Notes under the pieces: generated by a model
The model's input: only the letters and a program-made list of their open reading frames with translations
Database searches by the model: none
What the model was told of the DNA's origin: nothing
In this document: in pieces, positions 2 through 29,252 of the stretch
How positions within the stretch are numbered: the first letter of the stretch is position 1
Layout: each line of letters begins with the position of its first letter
Program-made: the position numbers and the translations under genes
Assembly (NCBI GenBank): GCA_030740155.1
Contig: JASLXV010000089.1
Location: forward strand, 1 to 37,703
Direction: 5' to 3'
DNA from: Dehalococcoidia bacterium
GTDB lineage: Bacteria > Chloroflexota > Dehalococcoidia > Lucifugimonadales > UBA3495
Length of the DNA stretch: 37,703 nt

Positions 2-442
2 CTGGCGGTGGGCGCCTCGGTGGAGATCACCAACATCCCGGGTTACCTCCCGCTCCGTCAGGACCCGAAGCTCCAAGAGCTGTTTCGGCAGGGTTCAGTG
101 GAACTGCTGGGGGAGAGGGCGACCCTGGTGATCCCGGCGCGGCGCAACCGGGGCGGATCGACTGACATGGGAGACCTTAGCCACGTTATACCGGTATGCC
201 ATCCGTACACCGGCGGAGCAACCGGTCCCGGACACAGCAAAGAGTACCTGGTCAATGACTACGAGTTGGCGGTGATCAATCCGGCCAAAATCATGGCCAT
301 GGTGGTGATCGACTTGCTGGGTAATGGTGGCGCCAAGGCCCAATCAGTCATCAAGTCGCATCGGCCCGCGATGAGCAAACAGGCCTACTTGAAGTTCCAA
401 CGGGAGCGGGCCGAGACCATCCGGTTCGACGGCGGAGGCTGA
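2..442 (+). CDS. M20-family amidohydrolase, C-terminal part (5' end outside window)
   Basis: Frame open from the window start; GGSTDMGDLSHVIPVCHPY resembles the C-terminal GSTD..(H/D)-HP motif of M20D/ACY1L2-like amidohydrolases. Confidence 0.75.
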   Translation: MAVGASVEITNIPGYLPLRQDPKLQELFRQGSVELLGERATLVIPARRNRGGSTDMGDLSHVIPVCHPYTGGATGPGHSKEYLVNDYELAVINPAKIMAMVVIDLLGNGGAKAQSVIKSHRPAMSKQAYLKFQRERAETIRFDGGG

Positions 443-11953: not shown

Positions 11954-14900
11954 TTACGAGGTGAGCTTCCGGTAGAGCATCGGCAGCCGTTCGGGCAAGG
12001 CCCAGATATCGCCGAGCACCTCGTACCCCATGTCGCCGCACATGCTCTTTAGATAGTCATGCCCGGCCTTGTCCACCGTGAGGCAGAAGGGGACGATCTG
12101 CTTGCGCCTGGCCTCGATCAGGGCCATGTGGGTGTCGTGGACCGCGTACTCTTTCTCCACGCCTTCCCGGCTGTAGCCCCGGTCCTGGGGACGCCCGTCG
12201 CTGATCAAGAACATGATCTTGGTGGTGGCGTCCTGGTGCTCCAGCTTGCTGGTGGCGTGGCGGATGGCGGCCCCCATGCGAGTCGCGTGCAGGGGCGTAA
12301 CCTTATCGAGCCGGCGCTTGATCTTTTCTCCGAAACTCTCATTGATGTCTTTGATGACGTAGAACTCGACGTTCTCTCGGCCGTAGCCGGAGAAGCCGTA
12401 GATTCCATAGGTGTCGCCGATGGACTCCAGCGCGTTGATCAGCAGGGCCGTGCTCTCTTTCTCCAGATCGATGATGCGTTTGTAGTTGCGGCGAACCAGC
12501 CCTTCCCGGCGGCGGCGAAGCCAGACCATGTATTCAACCGGGTCGTCCGGGGCGTCCCGGTCGTCCACGGTCTGGCGTCCTTCGTCGATGGCCTCGGCGG
12601 TGGAGGCGCTCATGTCCAGCAGGAACACCACGGCCACGTCTCGGCGCGCCCGGTTGCGCTGCCAGTAGATCTTTTCATCGGGAGGCAATTTCATTCGCAG
12701 GTCGGCCCATGCCTCGAGGGCGGCGTTCAGGTCGAGGTCCTCGCCATCGGTCAGCCGGTAGATCTTCCGGAAGCTCTCCGGCATTATCAACTCGAACTGG
12801 CGTTTGATGTGGTGCGAGAGGGTCATGTAATTCTTCAAGGAGTCGTTGTAGAAGTTCGAGTCTCCTTCTTCTACGAGTTTCTCCTTGACGATGCACCACC
12901 TGGGTTTGTAGTCGGCGGCCCGGAAATCCCACTCGTCATAGGCGTAGGTCTGGGGTTCCTTGGGCTCCAGCTCGCCGCCCTGGTCGTCATCGTGCAGCAG
13001 GGGGCCGTAGCCCTGTCCGGGCTTGGAATCGGGCGGAGGGGTGCCGGCTTCTTTCATCAGGTTCTGGGCGAACATAGTCATGCTGGAGTCGATATCGCCC
13101 TGCTCGGCATCCAGCTCCAGCTCGGCACTCTGCTGCAGCAGTTGCTCCAGCATCTCCTGGGAGATAGGCTGGCTCTCACCCTGCTGGTTCGGGTCCATCT
13201 GCAGTCTGGCCAGGAGTTGGACCATTTCAGGCTTGAATTCGCCTCGGTAGTCCACCGGCTCCGACGATTCATAGTCCTGGCTTTCGCCGCCTTCCCCGGA
13301 GGCTTCCATGCCGGCTTGAAGCTGGTCCAAGAGGGCCTGGAGGTCTTCCTCGGAGAAATCGCCCGGCTCTTCCAGGTCCTGCTCCTCCCACTGGTCTTCC
13401 GGCTGGGTCTCGTTCTGAATGCGGGAGATAATCTCGTAGGCCCGAAGGGTGGCCTCCCCGGTGTCTTCCACCGTTGCCAGGGCCGTCCGCAGTTGGTGCA
13501 GGATGCGGGACAGCATGGTCGCGGCGTCTTCGTACTCTTTGGGCACGGGCAGGCCGGTGAACTGCTCCAGGCTCATGTGAACCAGTAGCTCCACCATGGC
13601 CTCTTGGAGGGCCATTTCCTGTATCTTGGGGCGGGTGGCCAACGCCTCGGACTGGACCTTGCCGGCCGACTTCCGGATGCCGGGGTATTCCACGCTGATG
13701 CGGTAATCCAGGCGACAGTCCTCCAGCACCGTAAAAATGTCGAAGGCCAGGCGCCGGTTCTCGAACAGGTGCAAAAAGCGCCCGATGGAGGTGAGGGGAT
13801 CAGTCGCTTCGGCTTCGGCTTCGGCTTCGCCCTCCGCCTGCCCCGGGGCCGCCGGCAGCTCCTTCGTCCCGGATTCCAGATCGAAGCGACGGTCGGTAAA
13901 CTGGGTGGCCGGGGAATCGAAATCGAAGAGGAAACTACCGAACTCCAAGTGGCCCACCTGGTGGGTAGAGACCACTTTAAACCAGGAGAAGTTCTCCTGC
14001 TTGTCAGCGTAGTGGTCCACCACCGGCGGCAAGAACACTTTGGTACCGTCGGTTGAAGCCGAGTCTTCATCCACCCAACCGATGTTCTTGCTGACCAGCT
14101 CGTGGGTGTTGAATATCTCCACCGCGGAGCCGGAGAGGGCCCGGCAGTACAGGCGGATAATGCCTTTAACCCGCTCTAGCTCCAGGCTTGAGGACAGGGT
14201 TTCCAGCAAGGCTTCAGAGGTGTTGGACTCTATCTTGAAGAAGGCGATGCCGCTCTCCGGGTTCTCCTTCAGCAGCCCGACGCCGCGTTGGAACCAGCTG
14301 TCGAGTTGGTTGACCGTGATGCGGTCCAGGACGTCGGTCAAGCTCTTCAGGAAGGGAGGGACCGCGTCGGGAGAAACCGCCAGCAGCGTCTCGCACAGGT
14401 CCAGGACATAGCCCTGGGACCCTTGAGGGACGCGGCTCAAGGCCAAGGTGCCGTCCGCCAGGAAGCGAGAGGTGTCCCGCATTCCCACCTTGGCCAGCCG
14501 CTCCCCAAGCTTGAGGAAGCGGCCCGTCTGGCCCTCGTCGACCTGCTGTAAGGCGCGGGGCACCATCTCCAGGCAGGTCTTGACCTCCCGCCAGCTACTG
14601 TCGATCAAGGCGCGTGACATGGACAGGAAGGGCTCCCGCTCCCGCCCCATGGCGGGCAGGACATCCCGGCCCAGAAGCAGACATTCTCCGGCCACGTCGT
14701 AGGACTTGTAGGAGAGGGCTTCGATGAGGGAAGCGAACACCTCCACGTCCCAGAAGGGCAGGCTACGGATCAAGTCCGGGCTGACCTCGAAGAACTTGGC
14801 GGCCAGGGTGCTGGACTTCCAGGTGCCCTTATACAGGCTTCGGCCCAGCCCAGCCCAGCGAGGAATGTACTGAGGCCGCAGGTTGGGCACGATGGACGAG

Positions 14901-15214
14901 CTGGCGCGGAAGAAGGCGACCGCCAGGGTGGGGGAGTCTTGGGCCAAATAGGTGCCGCACCGGGCCCACTGCATGAAAGAGGGGAACGAGAGGAAACGGG
15001 CCACCTCTGGGCTGGCCCGGTAGTACTCGACCGCGGATTCCCAGGAGCGGACCGTCTGGAGCCCGATAGACAGTCCTTCCTTGGCCCACAGGGTTAACTC
15101 TTCTCCGCCGAAAGCCGATTCGAGCGAAGGCGTGGCATCATTGCAAGCTTCCAAGACTGCCGGGGGGAGCTTGGCGAGTTCCTTCTCAATCTCCGCCAGA
15201 GGAGCCGTACTCAA
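11954..15214 (-). CDS. Large CbbO/NorD-like von Willebrand A (VWA) domain protein
   Basis: C-terminal MIDAS DMSAST, TRMGAAIRHA, ISDGRPQD; YDEWDF..DY; DGEDLDL; long helical N-terminal region and acidic linker. Confidence 0.85.
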   Translation of the reverse strand: MSTAPLAEIEKELAKLPPAVLEACNDATPSLESAFGGEELTLWAKEGLSIGLQTVRSWESAVEYYRASPEVARFLSFPSFMQWARCGTYLAQDSPTLAVAFFRASSSIVPNLRPQYIPRWAGLGRSLYKGTWKSSTLAAKFFEVSPDLIRSLPFWDVEVFASLIEALSYKSYDVAGECLLLGRDVLPAMGREREPFLSMSRALIDSSWREVKTCLEMVPRALQQVDEGQTGRFLKLGERLAKVGMRDTSRFLADGTLALSRVPQGSQGYVLDLCETLLAVSPDAVPPFLKSLTDVLDRITVNQLDSWFQRGVGLLKENPESGIAFFKIESNTSEALLETLSSSLELERVKGIIRLYCRALSGSAVEIFNTHELVSKNIGWVDEDSASTDGTKVFLPPVVDHYADKQENFSWFKVVSTHQVGHLEFGSFLFDFDSPATQFTDRRFDLESGTKELPAAPGQAEGEAEAEAEATDPLTSIGRFLHLFENRRLAFDIFTVLEDCRLDYRISVEYPGIRKSAGKVQSEALATRPKIQEMALQEAMVELLVHMSLEQFTGLPVPKEYEDAATMLSRILHQLRTALATVEDTGEATLRAYEIISRIQNETQPEDQWEEQDLEEPGDFSEEDLQALLDQLQAGMEASGEGGESQDYESSEPVDYRGEFKPEMVQLLARLQMDPNQQGESQPISQEMLEQLLQQSAELELDAEQGDIDSSMTMFAQNLMKEAGTPPPDSKPGQGYGPLLHDDDQGGELEPKEPQTYAYDEWDFRAADYKPRWCIVKEKLVEEGDSNFYNDSLKNYMTLSHHIKRQFELIMPESFRKIYRLTDGEDLDLNAALEAWADLRMKLPPDEKIYWQRNRARRDVAVVFLLDMSASTAEAIDEGRQTVDDRDAPDDPVEYMVWLRRRREGLVRRNYKRIIDLEKESTALLINALESIGDTYGIYGFSGYGRENVEFYVIKDINESFGEKIKRRLDKVTPLHATRMGAAIRHATSKLEHQDATTKIMFLISDGRPQDRGYSREGVEKEYAVHDTHMALIEARRKQIVPFCLTVDKAGHDYLKSMCGDMGYEVLGDIWALPERLPMLYRKLTS

Positions 15215-15811: not shown

Positions 15812-16705
15812 CTACTCGAAGATGGAGGAAACCACCTCTTCAATACTCCGCTGCAACTCCACCTCGTCGGTCAAGGTCCACACGATCGCCACCTGGCAAG
15901 CCCGGCGAGCCTCGATACCCTCGGACATGAGACGGGCGGCGTAGATGAGCAGCCGGGTGCTGGCCCCTTCCTGGAGGCCGTGCTCCTGCAGGTTGCGTAT
16001 CTTCTCGCCGAGCTTCGCCAGGGCGTCGGCTTCCGCCGCGCCGCAGCCGCTCTCCTGCCGGATGATCTCAGCTTCGATGTCCCTGGGGGGATAGTTGAAC
16101 TCGATAGAGATGAACCGCTGCCGGGTGCTGTGCTTCAGGTCTTTCAATGCGCTCTGATAACCAGGGTTATAGGAGATGCAAAGGAGGAAGCGGTCGTCGG
16201 CTTCGATGATCGATCCTGTCTTCTCCACCGGCAAGATTCGCCGGTGGTCGGTGAGGGGGTGGATCAGCACGGTGGTGTCTTTCCGCGCCTCCACGACTTC
16301 GTCCAAGTAAAGGATGGCCCCCGTTTTGACCGCGCGGGTCATCGGTCCGTCGATCCAGCGGGTGCCCTCGGCGTCCAAAAGGTACCGGCCCACCAGGTCG
16401 CTGGCGGTGAGGTCCTCGTGGCAGGCGATGGTGACCAACGGGACCCGGACCTCTCCTTCCCGGACCTCTTGTCTGTTTTTTCCCTTGACCGTCGTGATTG
16501 GCCGGCCCAGTCTCCAGGCCATGTACTCCACGAAGCGGGTCTTGCCGCAGCCCGTGGGCCCCTTCAGCAACACCGGAATGTGCTGATTATAGGCCGCGGT
16601 GAACAGCTCGAGTTCGTCCCCCACCGTGCGGTAGTAGGGCTCGCTGCGAACCAGGAACTCCTCGATTGCGTACTCTTTGTAAGTCGGGTCGACGGTCTTT
16701 ACCAT
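15812..16705 (-). CDS. CbbQ/NirQ/NorQ-family MoxR AAA+ ATPase
   Basis: PVLLKGPTGCGKTRFVEYMA, ACHEDLTASDLVGRY, YLDEVVEARKDT, HPLTDHRR, SYNPGYQ, STRLL. ATG overlaps the coaE stop (TAATG). Confidence 0.92.
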   Translation of the reverse strand: MVKTVDPTYKEYAIEEFLVRSEPYYRTVGDELELFTAAYNQHIPVLLKGPTGCGKTRFVEYMAWRLGRPITTVKGKNRQEVREGEVRVPLVTIACHEDLTASDLVGRYLLDAEGTRWIDGPMTRAVKTGAILYLDEVVEARKDTTVLIHPLTDHRRILPVEKTGSIIEADDRFLLCISYNPGYQSALKDLKHSTRQRFISIEFNYPPRDIEAEIIRQESGCGAAEADALAKLGEKIRNLQEHGLQEGASTRLLIYAARLMSEGIEARRACQVAIVWTLTDEVELQRSIEEVVSSIFE

Positions 16706-17316
16706 TATGCGTGTGCTATCCTTTTTTTGACTCTGCTGTCCCACAGGCTGTTGATTGTTTTCTCCAGTTGGGCCATGTCTCCGGAATTATCCACGACCAC
16801 GTCGACGAGGGCTAACCGCTCCGACCGGTCCATTTGGGAACCCAGGCGTTTGAGCACTTCTTCTTCGCTCATCCCATTCCTGGCCTGGAGCCGCTGAATT
16901 ACAACATCGACGGGAGAGTCGGTGGCCCAGATTTCTTCCACCAGCGAGTCCCACCCCGCTTCCAACAGTATCGCCGCTTCCACCACCGCCACCTGGACCT
17001 CCCCGGAGCGCAAGTCATCGAGTTTGTCCACTATCATAGCCGCAATTCGCGGGTGCATGATCCGGTTCAACTCGGCCAGCCGCTCCGGGTCTGAGAATAC
17101 GATGCCGCCTAATTTCCGGCGGTCGATCTCGCCGCTGTCCTGGAGTATTTCTTCCCCAAAAGCCTCTACGACCGCGCGCAAACCTTCGGAGTTCGGGAGG
17201 TACGCTTCGTGGCCAACCAGGTCGGCGTTGATCAAGACCGCGCCCAAGCCTTGCATCAATTCGGACACTACGCTCTTGCCGGATCCGATGCTACCGGTCA
17301 ACCCAATGACTAACAT
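16705..17316 (-). CDS. coaE: Dephospho-CoA kinase
   Basis: IGLTGSIGSGKS, ADLVGH, IDRRKLGGIVF, LNRIMHP, SQM, VDNSG. Confidence 0.93.
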   Translation of the reverse strand: MLVIGLTGSIGSGKSVVSELMQGLGAVLINADLVGHEAYLPNSEGLRAVVEAFGEEILQDSGEIDRRKLGGIVFSDPERLAELNRIMHPRIAAMIVDKLDDLRSGEVQVAVVEAAILLEAGWDSLVEEIWATDSPVDVVIQRLQARNGMSEEEVLKRLGSQMDRSERLALVDVVVDNSGDMAQLEKTINSLWDSRVKKRIAHA

Positions 17317-22862: not shown

Positions 22863-24473
22863 ATGCCAGCAAAGCAGATAGCGCGAGACGAAGAGGCCCG
22901 GAAAGCCTTGATGCATGGCATCGATACGGTGGCGAACGCGGTTAGGCTGACCCTGGGCCCCAAAGGATTGAACGTAATCCTGGAGAAGAAGTTCGGGGCC
23001 CCCGTGGTGACCAATGACGGAGTATCCATCGCCAAGGAAGTGGACTTGTCCGACCCCTTCGAAAACATGGGCGCCCAACTGATAAAAGAGGCGTCTACCA
23101 AGACGAGCGACTCCGCCGGAGACGGCACCACGACAGCCGCCGTCCTGACCCAGGTCATCGTCCGGGAGGGAATGAAGAACGTGGCCGCCGGGGCCGACCC
23201 GATGGCCATCAAGCGGGGGATCGACAAAGGAGTGAAGGTGCTGGTGGCGGAGCTGCTGAAGAATGCCATCACCGTAGAGGGGCGGGACCAGAAAGCCCAG
23301 ATAGCTTCCATCTCGGCCAACGACCGCGACATTGGGAACCTCCTGGGCGATGCCATAGACCGCATCGGCGGAGATGGCGTGATCACCATCGAAGAAGGCA
23401 AGGGCATTGAGTCGGATACCGAGTACGTCGATGGAATGAGTTTCGACCGAGGCTACATCAGCCCGTACTTCGTCACCAACCCCGAGCGCATGCTGGCGGA
23501 CATTGAGGACCCCTATATTCTGATTATGGACAAGAAAATCTCTGCCGCCGCCGATCTGGTGCCGCTGCTGGAGAAGACTCTGCAAGTTTCGAAAAACCTG
23601 GTGATCATCAGCGAAGACGTGGACGGAGAGGCGCTGGCCGTCCTGGTGGTGAACAAGCTCCGCGGAACAATGAACTCCACGGCGGTCAAAGCCCCGGGTT
23701 TCGGGGACAGGCGCAAGGCCATGCTGGAAGATATCGCCGTCCTCACCGGCGGGCAGATCATTTCTGAAGAGCAGGGCCGCAAGCTCGATTCAGCCACAGT
23801 TGCCGACCTGGGCCGGGCCCGAAAAGTCGAATGCTCCAAAGACAAGACCACAATCATCGAGGGCAAGGGCTCGCCGGACATGATCAAGGCGAGGCAAGAG
23901 CAGATCAAGGTCCAGATTGAGGAATCGACCTCGGACTACGACAAGGAGAAGCTCCAGGAGCGCCTCGCCAAGTTGTCCGGAGGCGTGGCTATCATCAAGG
24001 TCGGGGCGGCCACCGAACCCGAACTCAAGGAGCGTAAGCGGCGGGTGGAAAACGCCCTGGCCGCAACCCAGGCCGCGGTTGAGGAAGGCGTGGTCCCCGG
24101 CGGCGGGGTGGCCTTCGTTCGCGCGCTGCCGGTGCTGGACAGCCTCAAACTGCCGGGCGATGAGGCCATTTCCACCGACATTCTCAAGCAGGCCCTGGTG
24201 GAGCCGGTTCGTATCATCGCCAGCAATGCCGGGCAAGAGGGAGCCGTGGTGCTGGACCAGATACGCCAGAGCCGGCTCCCCAATTTCGGATACGACGCCC
24301 AGGACGATAACTACGGTGACATGGTGGCCAAGGGAATAATCGATCCGGCCAAGGTGATCCGGATCGCCCTGCAAAACGCGGCCAGCGTCGCCGGCATGGT
24401 CCTGACTACCGAGTCACTGATTACCGAGGAAAAGACCAAGGAGCCGGACGCGGGGCACGGCCACATGCATTAG
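22863..24473 (+). CDS. groEL: Chaperonin GroEL with His-rich C-terminus
   Basis: [55 protein letters not shown]; ends GHGHMH. Confidence 0.97.
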
Positions 24474-24700
24474 GCGGCCTCGGGCGGGCGGGTTGGCACG
24501 CTCCCCACCCGCATTTCCACCTGCCTCGGCGCTCTAATGACGAGTGAATCACGTCAGCGCAAGCCGTGGTCTGCGGGGCCGGGCCCATTGTCACGGTGCG
24601 GACTGTCTTCCAAGAGTCTTCGTGGGCGGTTGGGGGAAACGGCGTGCGCTAAGGATTATGTCAACAGAACCTATTTGCTTCCGGAGCAAAGGAGGTAACT

Positions 24701-25345
24701 ATGACGGATCTCGCGATGCTTGACAGGGCTCACCACGGTATCATGAGGCGCTTCGTTGAGACGGGCCTTGCGCCTCACTACACGGAACTGGCGGCAAGCC
24801 TGGGCCTCCCGGTTGAAGAAGGACGCCAAGTGCTCCGCGACCTGATAGCCACCGGGATCCCCGCGTGGCTGCACCCGGGGACCGACTACATCGTATCCGT
24901 GGCGCCGTTCAACAACATGCCAACCCAGTACCGTATCACCGTGGACGGCCAGCAGAAATGGTTCGCCCAATGAGGGTTCGAGGCGCTGGCGGTCCGCTGG
25001 CTGTTCCCCGGAAAGACGGTCCGAATCGATGCCCCGTGCCTGGATTGCGGTGATCCCATCACCATCGAGATGCAGGATGAGCAGGTGCTTTCCGCCAGCC
25101 CGGAAGGGATAGTGGGATACACCAACGGCGAGGTGGGGGGATCACCGGATACCCGCCCCACTCGTTGAGCCGGCATGAACCTCTTCCGGTCGGAAGAGCA
25201 TGCCCGTAGCTGGTCCGGGTTCGACCCCGCCTTCGAAGAGACCCTTCAACCGCTGGCCTATTGGGTGGAGCGGTTCAGCGCGGAGAGGCACCGCGCTCGG
25301 GGCGCCACAAATTATATGTCGCGCCGCGCCGCTGGGGAGTTATAG
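24701..25345 (+). CDS. MerB (organomercurial lyase)-like protein, predicted selenoprotein with two Sec (U91, U156), 214 aa
   Basis: RBS AAAGGAGG; N-terminal wHTH; APFNNMPTQYRITVDGQQKWFAQ-U-GFEALAV...RIDAPCLDCGDPITIE...PEGIVG...PTR-U-AGMNLFRSEEHARSW...GEL-TAG. TGA at 24971-73 and 25166-68 are in frame and fall at the MerB catalytic Cys positions. Confidence 0.88.
24985..25001 (+). promoter_or_regulatory. Putative bacterial SECIS hairpin for the first UGA
   Basis: GCTGGCG-GTC-CGCTGGC stem-loop (two G-U pairs) with GGTC at +18..+21 after TGA 24971-73. Confidence 0.6.
25172..25204 (+). promoter_or_regulatory. Putative bacterial SECIS hairpin for the second UGA
   Basis: GGCATG-[AAC bulge]-CTCTTCC-GGTC-GGAAGAG-CATGCC; perfect stems, loop GGTC at +20..+23 after TGA 25166-68. 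Confidence 0.78.
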
Positions 25346-25357
25346 GCAGGAGGCATC

Positions 25358-26842
25358 ATGGCCATAAGGGGCGAGAATCGCTTCGACGTCATCGTAGTGG
25401 GGGCGGGGAACGCCGCAATGTGCGCGGCCTTGGCGGCCCGGGAAGAGGGGGCGCGGGTCCTGGTGCTTGAAAAGGCGCCTTACGAGGAGCGGGGCGGAAA
25501 CAGCGCCTTCAGCGGCGGGTTGTTCGAGTTCGCACACCAGGGATTGGAGGACGTGATGCCCCTGGTGCCGGAACTCACCCCGGTCGAGGCGGAACGCCTG
25601 GACATGGGACCCTACACCGCCGACACCTACTACGAAAACCTGATGCGGATTTCAGAAGAGCGCGCCGACCCTGAACTGTGCCGGGTGCTGGCGGACCAGT
25701 CCTACGACACCCTTCGGTGGATGCAAAGTCTGGGAGTGCACTTCGAGCTGTACCAGCGGGCGCCGCGCCGGAGCGGCCGCACCATCTTCCTGCCCGGCAA
25801 CGAGCTTCAGACCTGGGGAGCGGGTCTCGGGTTAATGCAACAGCTCTTCCACATTGCCGAGGGACGGGGTGTCGACATCGCCTACGGTACCGCGGTCACC
25901 GGGCTGGTTACTGATGACCGGGACGGAGTCTGTGGAGTGCGGGTCCGTTCCGAGGACGGCGTTCAGGCGCTGGAGGCCGGGGGCGTGGTGCTGGGGAGCG
26001 GCGGCTTCGAGGCCAACCCGGAGATGCGCGCCCGCTACCTGGGAAAAGGGTGGGACTTCATGAAGGTGCGGGGCACCCGGCATAACACCGGCGAACTCCT
26101 GGACCGGGCCCGAGAGATTGGCGCAGGCAGCAGCGGCGCCTGGTCCGCCTCGGACTGCGGGTCGGTGGACATAGCCTCAGCGCCCTTTGGCGAGGTAAAG
26201 GCGGGCAACCTGAGTGCCCGCTCCTCTGAGAGGCTCGGCATCATGGTCAACGCCGAGGGGCGGCGTTTCGTGGACGAAGGGGCCGAGTTCCACCACACCG
26301 GGGGTGTAGCCCTGGGGAACGCCGTCTGGTCTCAGCCCGGGGGCCTAGCCTATCAACTCTTCGACCAGCAGACCGTTCAAATGCTGGACAAGGAGCGGTA
26401 CCACTCCGGGAGCCCTTCCGTGACCGCCGGCACCATGGAGGAGCTTGCTCGCAGCCTGGGGGTAGACTCCGATGCCCTGTCGGATACCGTCACCCGGTAC
26501 AACCAGGCGGTGCAGGAGGGGACCTTCGACACCACCATCAAGGACGGCAAGGGCACCCGTGGTCTGAAGCCACCCAAGTCAAACTGGGCACTGCGGCTGG
26601 AGCGCCCGCCCTTCGTGGCCTACCGCGTCTCCACCAGCATCGTCTTCACCCACGGAGGTATTGCGGTGGACGGGGAGGCCCGGGTCTTGGACTCCGCCCG
26701 ACAGGCTATCCCTGGCCTTTACGCCACGGGGGAAGCCATCGGCGGAATCTTCTACCGGGCTTTCTCCACCGGGGCCGGCCTCATGTTGGGTTCCGTCTTC
26801 GGACGCATAGCGGGCAGGAACGCCGCCAAGCTGGCCCGGTAA
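25358..26842 (+). CDS. FAD-dependent oxidoreductase, TcuA (tricarballylate dehydrogenase)/FAD_binding_2 family
   Basis: DVIVVGAGNAAMCAALAARE.GA.VLVLEKAP, RGGNSAF, GGFEANPEMR.RYLG, VRGTRHNTG, G.RFVDEG, PPKSNWA, FTHGG, PGLYATGE, GSVFGRIAG; RBS AGGAGG. Confidence 0.88.
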   Translation: MAIRGENRFDVIVVGAGNAAMCAALAAREEGARVLVLEKAPYEERGGNSAFSGGLFEFAHQGLEDVMPLVPELTPVEAERLDMGPYTADTYYENLMRISEERADPELCRVLADQSYDTLRWMQSLGVHFELYQRAPRRSGRTIFLPGNELQTWGAGLGLMQQLFHIAEGRGVDIAYGTAVTGLVTDDRDGVCGVRVRSEDGVQALEAGGVVLGSGGFEANPEMRARYLGKGWDFMKVRGTRHNTGELLDRAREIGAGSSGAWSASDCGSVDIASAPFGEVKAGNLSARSSERLGIMVNAEGRRFVDEGAEFHHTGGVALGNAVWSQPGGLAYQLFDQQTVQMLDKERYHSGSPSVTAGTMEELARSLGVDSDALSDTVTRYNQAVQEGTFDTTIKDGKGTRGLKPPKSNWALRLERPPFVAYRVSTSIVFTHGGIAVDGEARVLDSARQAIPGLYATGEAIGGIFYRAFSTGAGLMLGSVFGRIAGRNAAKLAR

Positions 26843-26850
26843 ATTCCCGG

Positions 26851-27609
26851 TCAGGCGTAGTGCAGCAGGATGTTGGCCAGTTCCCTGGGCCGGTAGAACG
26901 TCACCTGGTGGCAGGAGTCCACCGAAACGATCTCCGCGCCGGGGAGTCTTTGGGCCATCCGCTCCTGCATTTCCGGCGGCACCACCTTGTCCTGGGCGAG
27001 CACCACGTAGGTCACGGGACAGGGTGGAGAGCCGTCCCCCAAGTCAAATTTCGTCTTCATGACCCTAACCGGTAGCGGCCCGAAGAACCCCAACAAGTGG
27101 ATCACTTCCATCGGGTCCATCCCGTTACACATGTACCGGCTGATGACGAAGCGGGGAAACCTGAAGCTCTGCCGGGAGAGCTTGCTCAAAACCGAAATCA
27201 GCCGGAAACCGGCGCGGGCGCGCCGGGGCAATGCGGTCAGCATGCTCCGTTGGCTGGTGGGTAATACGGCGCCCACAAGAACCAGGCGTTTGGGCGGCTT
27301 CGGCAGCGCGGCAGCCGCCTGAAGGAGCAAGCCTCCGGCGAAGCCGTGTCCGACCAGGACCACGTCTTTCAGTTCTTCCCGCTCCACCGCCCGAACTATC
27401 GCGTGGACGCACTCTTCCAGTCTGACCTCGCCGGTGTCACCGTCGGCGTCCGCGCCGTGGCCAGGTAGGTCCAGGGGGTACACTCGGTCGACCGGGCGGG
27501 GCGCGTAGAGCCGTGGCGGGTGTTCCACCGGCGCGGTCAGGTATCCCCAGACCCGGCCCCAACTCCAGGCTCCTTGCCCCGCGCCGTGCACCAAAAGGTA
27601 GTCCGTCAT
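26851..27609 (-). CDS. Alpha/beta-hydrolase fold protein with non-canonical nucleophile elbow
   Basis: LLVHGAGQGAWSW, DLPGHG, VLVGHGFAG (Gly where Ser is expected), QDKVVP, SCHQ. Confidence 0.8.
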   Translation of the reverse strand: MTDYLLVHGAGQGAWSWGRVWGYLTAPVEHPPRLYAPRPVDRVYPLDLPGHGADADGDTGEVRLEECVHAIVRAVEREELKDVVLVGHGFAGGLLLQAAAALPKPPKRLVLVGAVLPTSQRSMLTALPRRARAGFRLISVLSKLSRQSFRFPRFVISRYMCNGMDPMEVIHLLGFFGPLPVRVMKTKFDLGDGSPPCPVTYVVLAQDKVVPPEMQERMAQRLPGAEIVSVDSCHQVTFYRPRELANILLHYA

Positions 27610-27863: not shown

Positions 27864-29252
27864 CTATCGACCCAGCGCCCCGCGCACCGCCCTCAGCAGA
27901 GGTTCATCCTCCTCGGGGAGCACCGTCCGAGGGTCGAGAAGCACCCTATTTTCCTCGATGCGGGCCACCACTGGCGGGTCGGCCCGGCGCAGTCTTCCCA
28001 TCACTTCCTCGGGCCCGCCGGGGACATCCTCGCAGGATACCGTCAGCACCCACGAAGGCAGGGTCTCACCGGGCAAGCTGCCTCCGCCGATTGCCGAGCG
28101 GGCCGGTTCCACACCGGCGCCCTTTCCCAGTTGCTTTTCCCAGAGGTTCGCCCGGTCCCGGACGGCCTCCTCAGGAGTGGCAATCATCCTCCAGATAGGT
28201 ATGTCCGTTAGGGCTTCCCCTTTCAAATAGTGGAGCAGGGTGGCGGTCAAGGCAGCCAGGCTGAACTTGTCGATTCGGATTGCCCGGGCCAGCGGGTGCC
28301 GGGCCAGCAACTCCACCTGATCCCGTCTTCCCACCACTATCCCGGACTGGGGGCCCCCCAACAGCTTGTCCCCGGAGAAAAGGACCAGGCCGACCCCGGC
28401 GGCAATACTCTCCTGGGGTGTCGGCTCATGGGCCAGGCCGTAGCGCTCCGTGGGCAGAAGACAGCCGCTGCCCACGTCGTGCAGGACGGGGACCCCGTAC
28501 CGCTGCCCCAGCTCCACCAACTCTTCGGGCTCCACTGTCTCCGTAAATCCTTCGACCCGGAAATTACTGGAGTGGACCTTGAGCAGGGCCGCGGTGTTAT
28601 CCGTGATGGCGTCCTCGTAGTCCCGGGCATAAGTCCGGTTGGTGGTGCCGACGTCCACGAGGGTGCCGCCACTTTGGCGCAGTACGTCCGGTATCCTGAA
28701 GCCGCCGCCGATTTCGACCGATTCGCCACGGGAGACTATTACCTCTTTTCCTTCTTTCCTTCCCTCTTTGTTTCCAGCGGCCAGGGCAGTCAGCCCCAGC
28801 AGCACTGCCGAGGCGTTGTTGTTAACCGCAAGCGCCGCCTCCGCGCCGGTCAACTGGCGAAGCAAGGACTGCAGGTGGGCCTGCCGGGAGCCGCGCCGTC
28901 CGCTTTCCAGGTCTAGCTCCAGGTTGGAGTATCCCCGGGCGGCCCGCAGCATTGCGTCGGTGGCAGCTTGGCTCAGGGGGGCACGCCCCAGGTTGGTGTG
29001 GATTACGACCCCGGTGGCGTTGATTACGTGGCGCGGCTCGGCTTGGGCCACCGATTCGATCTCGTGGCAGACCGCCTCGGCCAGTTCTGCCGGAGTTGGG
29101 GCTTCTCCTCCCTGGCGGATCCGCTGCCTGGCCTCGTCCAACTGCCGGCGAACCAGATCGACTACCCACTCCCGGTTGTAGGCCGTCGCCATGGCCAGCA
29201 CCGTGTCGATGCCCATGACCTTGTCCACGCTGGGCAGGTGGCGAAATTGCAT
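27864..29252 (-). CDS. selA: L-seryl-tRNA(Sec) selenium transferase (selenocysteine synthase)
   Basis: LPSVD, VINATGVVIHTNLGRAPL, YSNLELDL..G.RGSR, VNNNASA, SRGE.VEIGGGFRIPDV, VGTTNRT, KVHSSNF, FSGDKLLGGPQ (PLP Lys), GGGSLP, LDPRT. Confidence 0.97.
   Translation of the reverse strand: MQFRHLPSVDKVMGIDTVLAMATAYNREWVVDLVRRQLDEARQRIRQGGEAPTPAELAEAVCHEIESVAQAEPRHVINATGVVIHTNLGRAPLSQAATDAMLRAARGYSNLELDLESGRRGSRQAHLQSLLRQLTGAEAALAVNNNASAVLLGLTALAAGNKEGRKEGKEVIVSRGESVEIGGGFRIPDVLRQSGGTLVDVGTTNRTYARDYEDAITDNTAALLKVHSSNFRVEGFTETVEPEELVELGQRYGVPVLHDVGSGCLLPTERYGLAHEPTPQESIAAGVGLVLFSGDKLLGGPQSGIVVGRRDQVELLARHPLARAIRIDKFSLAALTATLLHYLKGEALTDIPIWRMIATPEEAVRDRANLWEKQLGKGAGVEPARSAIGGGSLPGETLPSWVLTVSCEDVPGGPEEVMGRLRRADPPVVARIEENRVLLDPRTVLPEEDEPLLRAVRGALGR

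Follow-up and report, generated by a model that had tools for sequence, protein, structure and literature searches.

A MerB-fold gene with two in-frame UGA codons, predicted to specify selenocysteine at both metal-ligand positions, in a Dehalococcoidia genome

The DNA considered here, which we call the window, is the whole stretch of 37,703 nucleotides that was analysed (contig JASLXV010000089.1 of GenBank assembly GCA_030740155.1, from a Dehalococcoidia bacterium). Our subject is a reading frame on its plus strand, 24701..25345, which the standard bacterial code (table 11) breaks into open reading frames (ORFs) of 90 and 56 amino acids. A first-pass annotation had claimed that the 90-residue ORF ends at a TGA, that the frame runs through a second TGA to give 214 codons with no other stop, and that the next start codon follows after a gap of 12 nt. 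Direct translation confirmed this description. The table 11 ORF spans 24701..24973 with its stop at 24971-24973, the second in-frame TGA lies at 25166-25168, the frame closes with TAG at 25343-25345 and is followed by ATG at 25358, and the only internal stops are the TGAs at codons 91 and 156. When TGA is read as selenocysteine (Sec, U), the motifs reported at that stage are also found to the letter, namely WFAQ-U91-GF-E94, APC113-LD-C116-G and TR-U156-AGMNLFRSEEHARSW. Based on these features and on the comparative evidence below, we interpret the three apparent gene fragments as a single gene encoding a 214-residue cytoplasmic protein with the predicted fold of MerB. Its parts are as follows:

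24689..24695, plus strand: Shine-Dalgarno sequence AAGGAGG, read from the sequence, 5 nt upstream of the ATG at 24701
24701..25345, plus strand: predicted complete selenoprotein gene, 214 codons and TAG, for a MerB-fold protein with Sec91 and Sec156 (translation with TGA=U, Pfam MerB match, AlphaFold2 model)
24971..24973, plus strand: UGA-1, putative Sec91, counterpart of MerB Cys96 (phmmer alignment, codons of homologues)
24980..24982, plus strand: GAG codon of Glu94, counterpart of MerB Asp99 (phmmer alignment)
25037..25048, plus strand: C113-L-D-C116 'knuckle' in a beta-hairpin turn, with C113 the counterpart of MerB Cys117 (alignment, model)
25166..25168, plus strand: UGA-2, putative Sec156, counterpart of MerB Cys159 (phmmer alignment, codons of homologues)

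A promoter and terminator scan of 24300..27000 detected no promoter-like site. Its one terminator-like site, found on the minus strand, did not rise above shuffle expectation.

MerB has an N-terminal winged helix and three catalytic residues, Cys96, Asp99 and Cys159; both cysteines bind the metal and Asp99 is the proton donor. The search against Pfam with TGA=U that the first-pass annotation had recommended placed the read-through protein well above the gathering threshold (GA) of the MerB family PF03243 (69.7 bits, GA 27, E 3e-19, residues 72-186). In phmmer alignments to the Protein Data Bank chains 3f2g and 5c17, U91 falls on Cys96, E94 on Asp99, C113 on Cys117 and U156 on Cys159. The proposal that both TGAs occupy catalytic cysteine positions and that Asp is replaced by Glu was therefore borne out by the alignment, as was the placing of the CLDC motif in the Cys117 region. 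An AlphaFold2 model built from a 28-row alignment of full-length relatives reached a mean predicted local distance difference test score of 95.0 and a predicted template modelling score of 0.89. MerB and MerB2 chains made up all 11 Foldseek matches to this model at E<=0.001. VIA-align superposed residues 3..202 of the model on residues 18..209 of MerB2 5c17 (Z 17.9, root-mean-square deviation 3.3 A, 191 aligned residues) and gave Z 15.9-16.7 for MerB entries; the best unrelated row had Z 5.2, and unrelated rows covered the N-terminal winged helix only. The C113/C116 knuckle sits between model strands 106-112 and 119-125. On the strength of the model we assign the MerB fold to the whole chain, and the alignments place Sec91 and Sec156 at the metal-ligand cysteine positions of MerB and Glu94 at the position of Asp99.

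How are the two TGA positions occupied in relatives of the protein? We compared 86 genome loci, comprising the best 80 of 390 relatives in species-representative genomes and six from a set of 401 genomes of the phylum, 18 of which gave a match at E<=1e-10. The codon at site 1 (codon 91) is TGA in 55 of the 86 loci and TGC or TGT in the other 31, and at site 2 (codon 156) it is TGA in 85, the exception being L089, in which the frame shifts locally between the sites. Residue 94 is Glu in 85 loci and Asp in L025, C113 is kept in all 86 and C116 in 83. The alignment to the read-through protein extends to residue 200 or beyond in every locus, internal TAA or TAG codons are absent from 85 (L098 has one), M159, F162, R163 and H167 are invariant downstream of site 2, and the family motif at that site is R-U or A-U. 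A scan of metagenome contigs, with proteins of the family written with Trp at both sites or carrying Cys at both (see below) as queries, found at least 548 relatives; among the best 80, from which codons were taken, 78 have TGA at both sites and two have TGA at site 2 with site 1 unreadable. TGG occurs at neither site in any of the 166 loci (86 from genomes and 80 from metagenomes). The first-pass annotation had reckoned with homologues bearing Trp, Arg or random residues at these codons, and with conservation that ends at the first TGA. The DNA has only TGA or TGC/TGT there, and protein conservation continues beyond both TGAs, a pattern well beyond chance expectation.

The 86 loci come from metagenome-assembled genomes (MAGs) labelled Dehalococcoidia/Chloroflexota, Binatia, Deltaproteobacteria/Desulfobacterota/Myxococcota, Entotheonella, Acidimicrobiia/Actinomycetota, Nitrospinota and Acidobacteriota. 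The nearest relative of the window protein among them is L044, from an uncultured Dehalococcoidia, with 87-89% identity, and Acidimicrobiia include the form in which site 1 is Cys and site 2 is TGA. On a quick tree of 83 rows, calculated with both sites masked and without L089, L110 and L111 (frameshifted or partial) and L098 (internal stop), the Sec/Cys state of site 1 requires nine changes, eight of which are forced by well-supported branches. Shuffled site 1 labels required 24.6 changes on average and none of 500 shuffles came as low as nine. The tree thus indicates at least eight exchanges between Sec and Cys at site 1; site 2, as the codons suggest, is almost always Sec. Several loci have features of their own. 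C116 is replaced by Gly only in L117, L119 and L120, from Poriferisodalis-type Acidimicrobiales, one Chloroflexota genome (G307) carries three double-TGA copies of the family (L025, L041 and L043), and some homologous loci show damage at the assembly level, with an in-frame TAA or TAG shortly before site 1 (L177) or with site 1 out of frame (L133, L144).

Downstream of each UGA lies a hairpin resembling a selenocysteine insertion sequence (SECIS):

24980..25006, plus strand: SECIS-like hairpin 1, core stem 24985-24991/24995-25001, loop GUC 24992-24994, outer pairs 24980-24982/25004-25006
25172..25204, plus strand: SECIS-like hairpin 2, upper stem CUCUUCC 25181-25187/GGAAGAG 25192-25198, loop GGUC 25188-25191
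25172-25177/25199-25204, plus strand: lower stem of hairpin 2, GGCAUG/CAUGCC, from the single-sequence fold

For hairpin 1 we aligned 55 sequences with TGA at site 1 (54 loci and the window; L048 was excluded by a motif filter) and used the 31 loci with Cys at that site as a control. RNAalifold predicts a 7-bp stem in the TGA set, nt 15-21 paired with nt 25-31 around a G-U-N loop, at -8.9 kcal/mol, as against -0.23 kcal/mol for the same region of the Cys loci. All seven pairs form in 40 of the 55 TGA sequences and six in the remaining 15, whereas the Cys loci scatter between two and seven. The peptide ALAVRW is the same in the two sets, but the codons that encode it are not equally free: at codons +4, +5 and +8 after site 1 a single codon accounts for 100, 93 and 100% of the TGA loci and for 68, 56 and 46% of the Cys loci. 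Hairpin 2 was examined in 81 sequences (80 loci and the window, six loci having been excluded by the motif filter). The seven upper-stem pairs are complete in 70 of these and the loop is GGUC in 76; codons +5 to +10 after site 2 show 88-100% use of a single codon, compared with 1-2 bits of synonymous entropy in flanking codons. The Cys control applies to hairpin 1, and hairpin 2 was judged without DNA carrying Cys at site 2. Folded singly, the window sequence is no better than its shuffles at hairpin 1 (z 0.14) and modestly better at hairpin 2 (z -1.65), so that the case for the hairpins rests on the comparative data. A near-invariant peptide downstream of Sec156, NLFRSEEH, is encoded by the stem of hairpin 2 (25181-25198). 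Since these stem codons are synonymously frozen, its conservation is in part a matter of the RNA, and some caution is needed before it is read as an active-site motif.

The genome (3.6 Mb in 108 contigs, 93.7% complete) is equipped to decode these codons. One gene of the machinery lies in the window itself:

27864..29252, minus strand: selA, selenocysteine synthase (TIGR00474, 549 bits against a cut-off of 268; Pfam SelA)

Elsewhere in the genome we found selB (350 bits, together with its neighbours), selD (376.8 bits) and a tRNA-Sec (69.4 bits, GA 47), and the prospect raised in the first-pass annotation, that the genome might lack selB, selC or selD, can be set aside. The selD gene (contig C32:19124-20044, L012) has one in-frame TGA and probably encodes a Sec-containing selenophosphate synthetase. 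Homologues with cysteine occur for both UGA positions, at site 1 in 31 of the 86 loci and at site 2 in four of 120 inspected database proteins and in a related Chloroflexota clade described below. Taken together, the comparative sequence evidence indicates that both UGAs are decoded as Sec, each by its own hairpin 11-13 nt downstream.

In protein databases this family is present in disguise. Among 848 candidates, 584 protein clusters matched at E<=0.001, and we inspected the best 120. In 82 of them the protein has Cys at site 1 and stops precisely at site 2 (80 recognised by their pattern, and P0079 and P0102 on visual inspection), which is the fragmentation by standard annotation that the first-pass annotation had anticipated; two NCBI records among these 82 are named 'organomercurial lyase'. 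A further 29 clusters have Trp at both sites (for example P0002, P0003, P0027 and P0031) and P0041, P0062 and P0086 are partial forms with Trp. Four have Cys at both sites (P0004, P0024, P0056 and P0070), P0009 has Gly at site 1 and the state of P0053 was not assigned. Public versions of these proteins thus break off after 155 residues, are divided into fragments, or have Trp at the two sites. When 30 Trp-bearing proteins were compared with the fetched loci there was no exact match between protein and DNA; judging from the codons, the proteins with Trp at both sites most likely represent TGA translated under code 4 on short metagenome contigs.

Published catalogues were consulted as well. No model of NCBIfam release 20 (June 2026) claims the window protein, which stays below every cut-off. 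In the tables of the 2022 and 2026 reviews (PMC9312934, PMC13188914), the latter with 119 families and subfamilies, the only MerB-like entry is SaoL, which has one Sec; the May 2026 review (PMC13188914) cites Haft & Tolstoy 2025 (mSystems). MerB is not mentioned in the text or the four supplements of the GOS 2008 paper. The text of the BSepDB paper names neither MerB nor SaoL, a negative that covers the article apart from family table S2. The Peng 2016 supplement lists an 'Organic mercuric lyase MerB2' with 17 proteins from 17 organisms and no sequences. A 2021 survey of mer genes (PMC8261052) screened, by its own description, for the Cys/Asp/Cys signature, and Sec forms would not have been counted because the screen required it. 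There is, then, a real and widespread double-Sec branch of the MerB superfamily that has apparently gone uncatalogued.

The same genome contains a second gene of this kind:

contig C79, L124:5668-6525, minus strand: putative second double-Sec MerB-like paralog (Pfam MerB, 29 bits, GA 27)

TGA stands at both catalytic positions in this paralog (FGIS-U-AVD ... GGT-U-GNNNLFRSEEH), which also has a CAHC knuckle. Its second TGA is followed, as in the window gene, by the peptide NLFRSEEH and the CUCUUCCGGUCGGAAGAG hairpin. It differs from the window protein in its ~32% identity, in keeping the canonical acid (U-A-V-D) and in a 130-residue N-terminal extension. Three features lie upstream of it: a metal regulator of the MerR family, whose best matches (ZntR, CadR, CueR and MerR) all fall below cut-off; a glutaredoxin domain; and a 169-residue remnant of the MerA C-terminus (174.5 bits, model positions 334-465). 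Downstream of it is an MIP channel, and no NCBIfam model matches the paralog. Another MerB-like clade of Chloroflexota has the canonical C-x-W-D at site 1 and the CxxC knuckle; its site 2 reads T-U-STM(L/N)LFRSEEH, with Sec, in L031, L032, L036, L038, L039, L040 and L042, and TTC-SNTMVFF, with Cys, in L028, L033-L035 and L037. Because the C79 paralog and this clade carry Sec at the Cys159 position, the use of Sec there is broader than SaoL and the window family.

The surroundings of the window gene are those of a housekeeping region, with groES/groEL just upstream, an alpha/beta hydrolase, selA, a riboflavin operon and ATP-binding cassette (ABC) transporters. The gene that follows it is probably co-transcribed with it and translationally coupled to it:

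25358..26842, plus strand: flavin adenine dinucleotide (FAD) oxidoreductase, TcuA-like (NF006130, 487 bits against a cut-off of 369), beginning 12 nt past the stop codon

A TcuB-like partner was not seen near this gene. We rejected the TcuA-like gene as a general partner of the family, as it stands beside a homologue only in L044 (1 of 86 loci). All-against-all clustering of 2609 flanking ORFs from the 86 loci returned, as the top clusters, a luciferase-like monooxygenase (13/86), a reductase of the old yellow enzyme (OYE) type (9/86) and parts of ABC/TOBE transporters. Further away in the window, a 1086-residue ORF with no Pfam match occupies 11954-15214 on the minus strand; a CbbQ/NorQ-type AAA ATPase gene (15812-16744, minus strand) lies two genes upstream of it, with a NUDIX gene between.

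What might be the function of such a protein? We propose that it is a MerB-like organometal(loid) lyase with two Sec residues in the MerB fold, a reading towards which we lean modestly. What the sequences show is the gene, the fold, the equivalence of the catalytic positions and the decoding as Sec; the function is predicted from these. The selenolates of Sec91 and Sec156 would clamp an organometal(loid) substrate by its soft metal(loid) atom, and Glu94 would protonate the departing carbon so that the carbon-metal(loid) bond is cleaved. The C113-x-x-C116 knuckle may afterwards receive the metal or return the selenium centre to its reduced state. Selenolates have a low pKa and are soft ligands, and these properties, we propose, would therefore favour the capture of a very dilute substrate. 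The substrate need not be mercury, since no mer genes lie alongside and the hydrophobic residues of MerB just before its catalytic cysteines, Trp95 and Phe158, are replaced by Gln90 and Arg155. A link to metals is suggested by analogy with the C79 paralog, which stands beside genes of metal type. The MerB core has been derived from duplicated TRASH-type treble-clef zinc fingers and its fold is held in common with the copper protein NosL (PMC4999995). The P-C-x-x-C-G knuckle of the window family may be a retained ancestral ligand pair, and a metal-binding or relay role therefore stays in play.

A number of observations weigh against this proposal. The MerB signature positions Cys96/Asp99/Cys159/Cys117 read Sec/Glu/Sec/Cys, residues that are chemically analogous but fall outside the signature, and the replacements of Asp99 by Glu, Trp95 by Gln90 and Phe158 by Arg155 in the phmmer alignment depart from MerB in the same way. 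The protein scores well below the cut-offs of the canonical MerB equivalogs (44.2 against 193 bits for NF033555 and 33.6 against 200 bits for NF009710 in NCBIfam). The genomic context is equally reticent. We found no merA, merR or merT/P in the window and no MerA above the family cut-off in the genome (best 399 against 454 bits). Pfam identified no mer or ars gene among 144 tightly coupled same-strand neighbours from the 166 loci, a heterogeneous set, and no conserved partner gene is apparent, the largest neighbour cluster reaching 13 of 86 loci. Rfam recognised no family at E<=1 over 24400..25500. Finally, a two-selenolate site should bind Hg(II) very tightly, and product release could limit turnover because the metal is held in this way.

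Alternatively, the protein could be a redox enzyme in which residues 91 (Sec or Cys) and 156 (Sec) alternate between the selenol and the diselenide or selenenylsulfide, the CxxC resolves or relays the bond and a flavin reductase recycles it. We regard this as rather unlikely. In its favour, the 2026 review (PMC13188914) states that a redox role is presumed for the majority of selenoproteins, a second CxxC is present and nearly invariant (C116 in 83 of 86 loci), and metal genes were not found among the coupled neighbours. Flavin oxidoreductases recur nearby, in the form of the TcuA-like gene (window and L044), the luciferase-like enzymes (13/86) and the OYE-type reductases (9/86), but no one reductase family accompanies the gene regularly. 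Moreover, the Sec positions coincide exactly with the metal ligands, and the acid three residues on, which a simple dithiol-type pair would not need, is kept throughout (Glu in 85, Asp in one of 86). To our knowledge, the MerB fold has no redox member.

A reading that we find somewhat less probable still is that of a non-catalytic metal(loid) binder, a scavenger, chaperone or store in which the two Sec, possibly with the knuckle cysteines, hold Hg, Cd, Cu(I) or a similar metal. The affinity of selenolates for soft metals is extreme, and the classical P-C-x-x-C-G knuckle is kept here and lost in canonical MerB. The treble-clef/TRASH ancestry and the kinship with the NosL fold (PMC4999995) also accord with a binding role. 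Binding alone, however, would not need an acid, and the proton-donor position is kept as one. In addition, MerB Cys117, the counterpart of C113, is described in the 2021 survey as a buried residue at some distance from the active site (PMC8261052); if this description holds here, a four-ligand site is unlikely.

The N-terminal domain raises the question of a metal(loid)-sensing transcription factor, with the winged helix joined to a Sec-based sensor domain, since residues 3-69 superpose on the winged helices of LexA, MntR and DtxR (Z 4-5). Canonical MerB, which is an enzyme and is not known to be a regulator, shares this domain, as the superposition of model residues 3..202 on 5c17 18..209 illustrates, and a conserved divergent target gene was seen neither among the neighbour clusters nor among the coupled neighbours; we consider such a sensor very improbable. 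Least credible of all is that the TGAs do not specify Sec and are genuine terminators, of a pseudogene or of three separate small ORFs, or Trp codons in these organisms. The 90- and 56-residue ORFs of table 11 and the 29 database clusters with Trp at both sites would fit. Against this, all 86 genome loci, which represent several phyla, are conserved across the two TGAs; Cys codons are the only alternative to TGA at site 1, and TGG is found in none of 166 loci. The hairpins are under selection as RNA just where TGA occurs, the genome has a complete Sec machinery, and with table 11 other genes of the window give full-length matches to their families.

What would be the implications of a double-Sec lyase? 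We speculate, tentatively and against our own better expectation, that the family is a mer-operon-independent demethylase of very high affinity for a methylated soft metal(loid), be it methylmercury or some other. If this were true, the demethylase would be borne by abundant uncultured lineages of ocean, sponge, sediment and soil (Dehalococcoidia, Nitrospinota, Binatia, Acidimicrobiia and Entotheonella), and it would be invisible to surveys that use the Cys96/Asp99/Cys159 signature or called ORFs. It could then explain part of the biological degradation of organometals where canonical merB is scarce, and a double-selenolate active site would represent a catalytic arrangement new to the MerB fold. 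In the wider setting the family is a candidate enzyme for the biogeochemistry of mercury and metalloids, missed by signature-based merB surveys such as that of 2021 (PMC8261052). Its abundance is considerable, with 390 relatives in species-representative genomes, at least 548 on metagenome contigs and 584 protein clusters, and recognising it corrects the annotation of hundreds of MAGs. The Sec/Sec, Cys/Sec and Cys/Cys forms, moreover, offer a natural series on the value of Sec at a metal site.

How does the proposed lyase relate to known systems? With MerB of plasmid R831b (3F0O/3F2F) and Bacillus MerB2 (5C17) it shares the predicted fold of the whole protein (Z 16.7-17.9), and the three catalytic positions and Cys117 align. 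It differs from them in having Sec for Cys96 and Cys159, Glu for Asp99 and Gln/Arg for Trp95/Phe158, and also in an additional Cys that forms a CxxC with the Cys117 counterpart and in a gene that stands without mer operon context.

The first-pass annotation had asked whether the subfamily is new, as Sec-containing MerB-like proteins had been reported before. The published family, SaoL (NF040728; Haft & Gwadz, bioRxiv 10.1101/2022.07.06.499078), is described as having a single Sec, placed in a CU motif that aligns with Cys159, and as keeping Cys99 and Asp102 at the other catalytic positions; it belongs to a nine-gene SAO locus (importer SaoB/P/X, SaoC, SaoT, SaoE and others) reported only in anaerobes. 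Both families match Pfam MerB, have Sec at the Cys159 position and are truncated in databases at that UGA, and for both it is argued that the substrate is not necessarily mercury. The window family is nevertheless distinct in score, motif, neighbours and second Sec. Against the SaoL model the window protein attains 41.6 bits, with a cut-off of 140, over residues 60-136 only, and a six-frame search of the genome with that model gave a single match of 35.1 bits. The window protein has T-R-U-A in place of C-U, a second Sec at the Cys96 position and Glu for Asp; its family possesses the CxxC knuckle and, in contrast to the anaerobes of SaoL, is found in MAGs of Dehalococcoidia, Binatia, Acidimicrobiia, Entotheonella, Nitrospinota and Desulfobacterota. 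A neighbourhood of the SAO type was not seen, in that no transporter set recurs in the 86 loci; of the Sao hidden Markov models, SaoL alone was searched. What is new with respect to SaoL is therefore the predicted Sec at both metal-ligand positions with their own SECIS hairpins, the Glu at the proton-donor position, the CxxC knuckle and the solitary gene.

A further comparison can be drawn with the selenoproteins that carry a UxxU motif (PMC13188914), which are likewise among the few bacterial selenoproteins that contain two or more Sec residues and for which a link to soft metals is presumed. Their fold is unrelated and both Sec residues lie in one motif served by nearby sequence, whereas the two predicted Sec residues of the window gene are 65 codons apart and each has a hairpin of its own.

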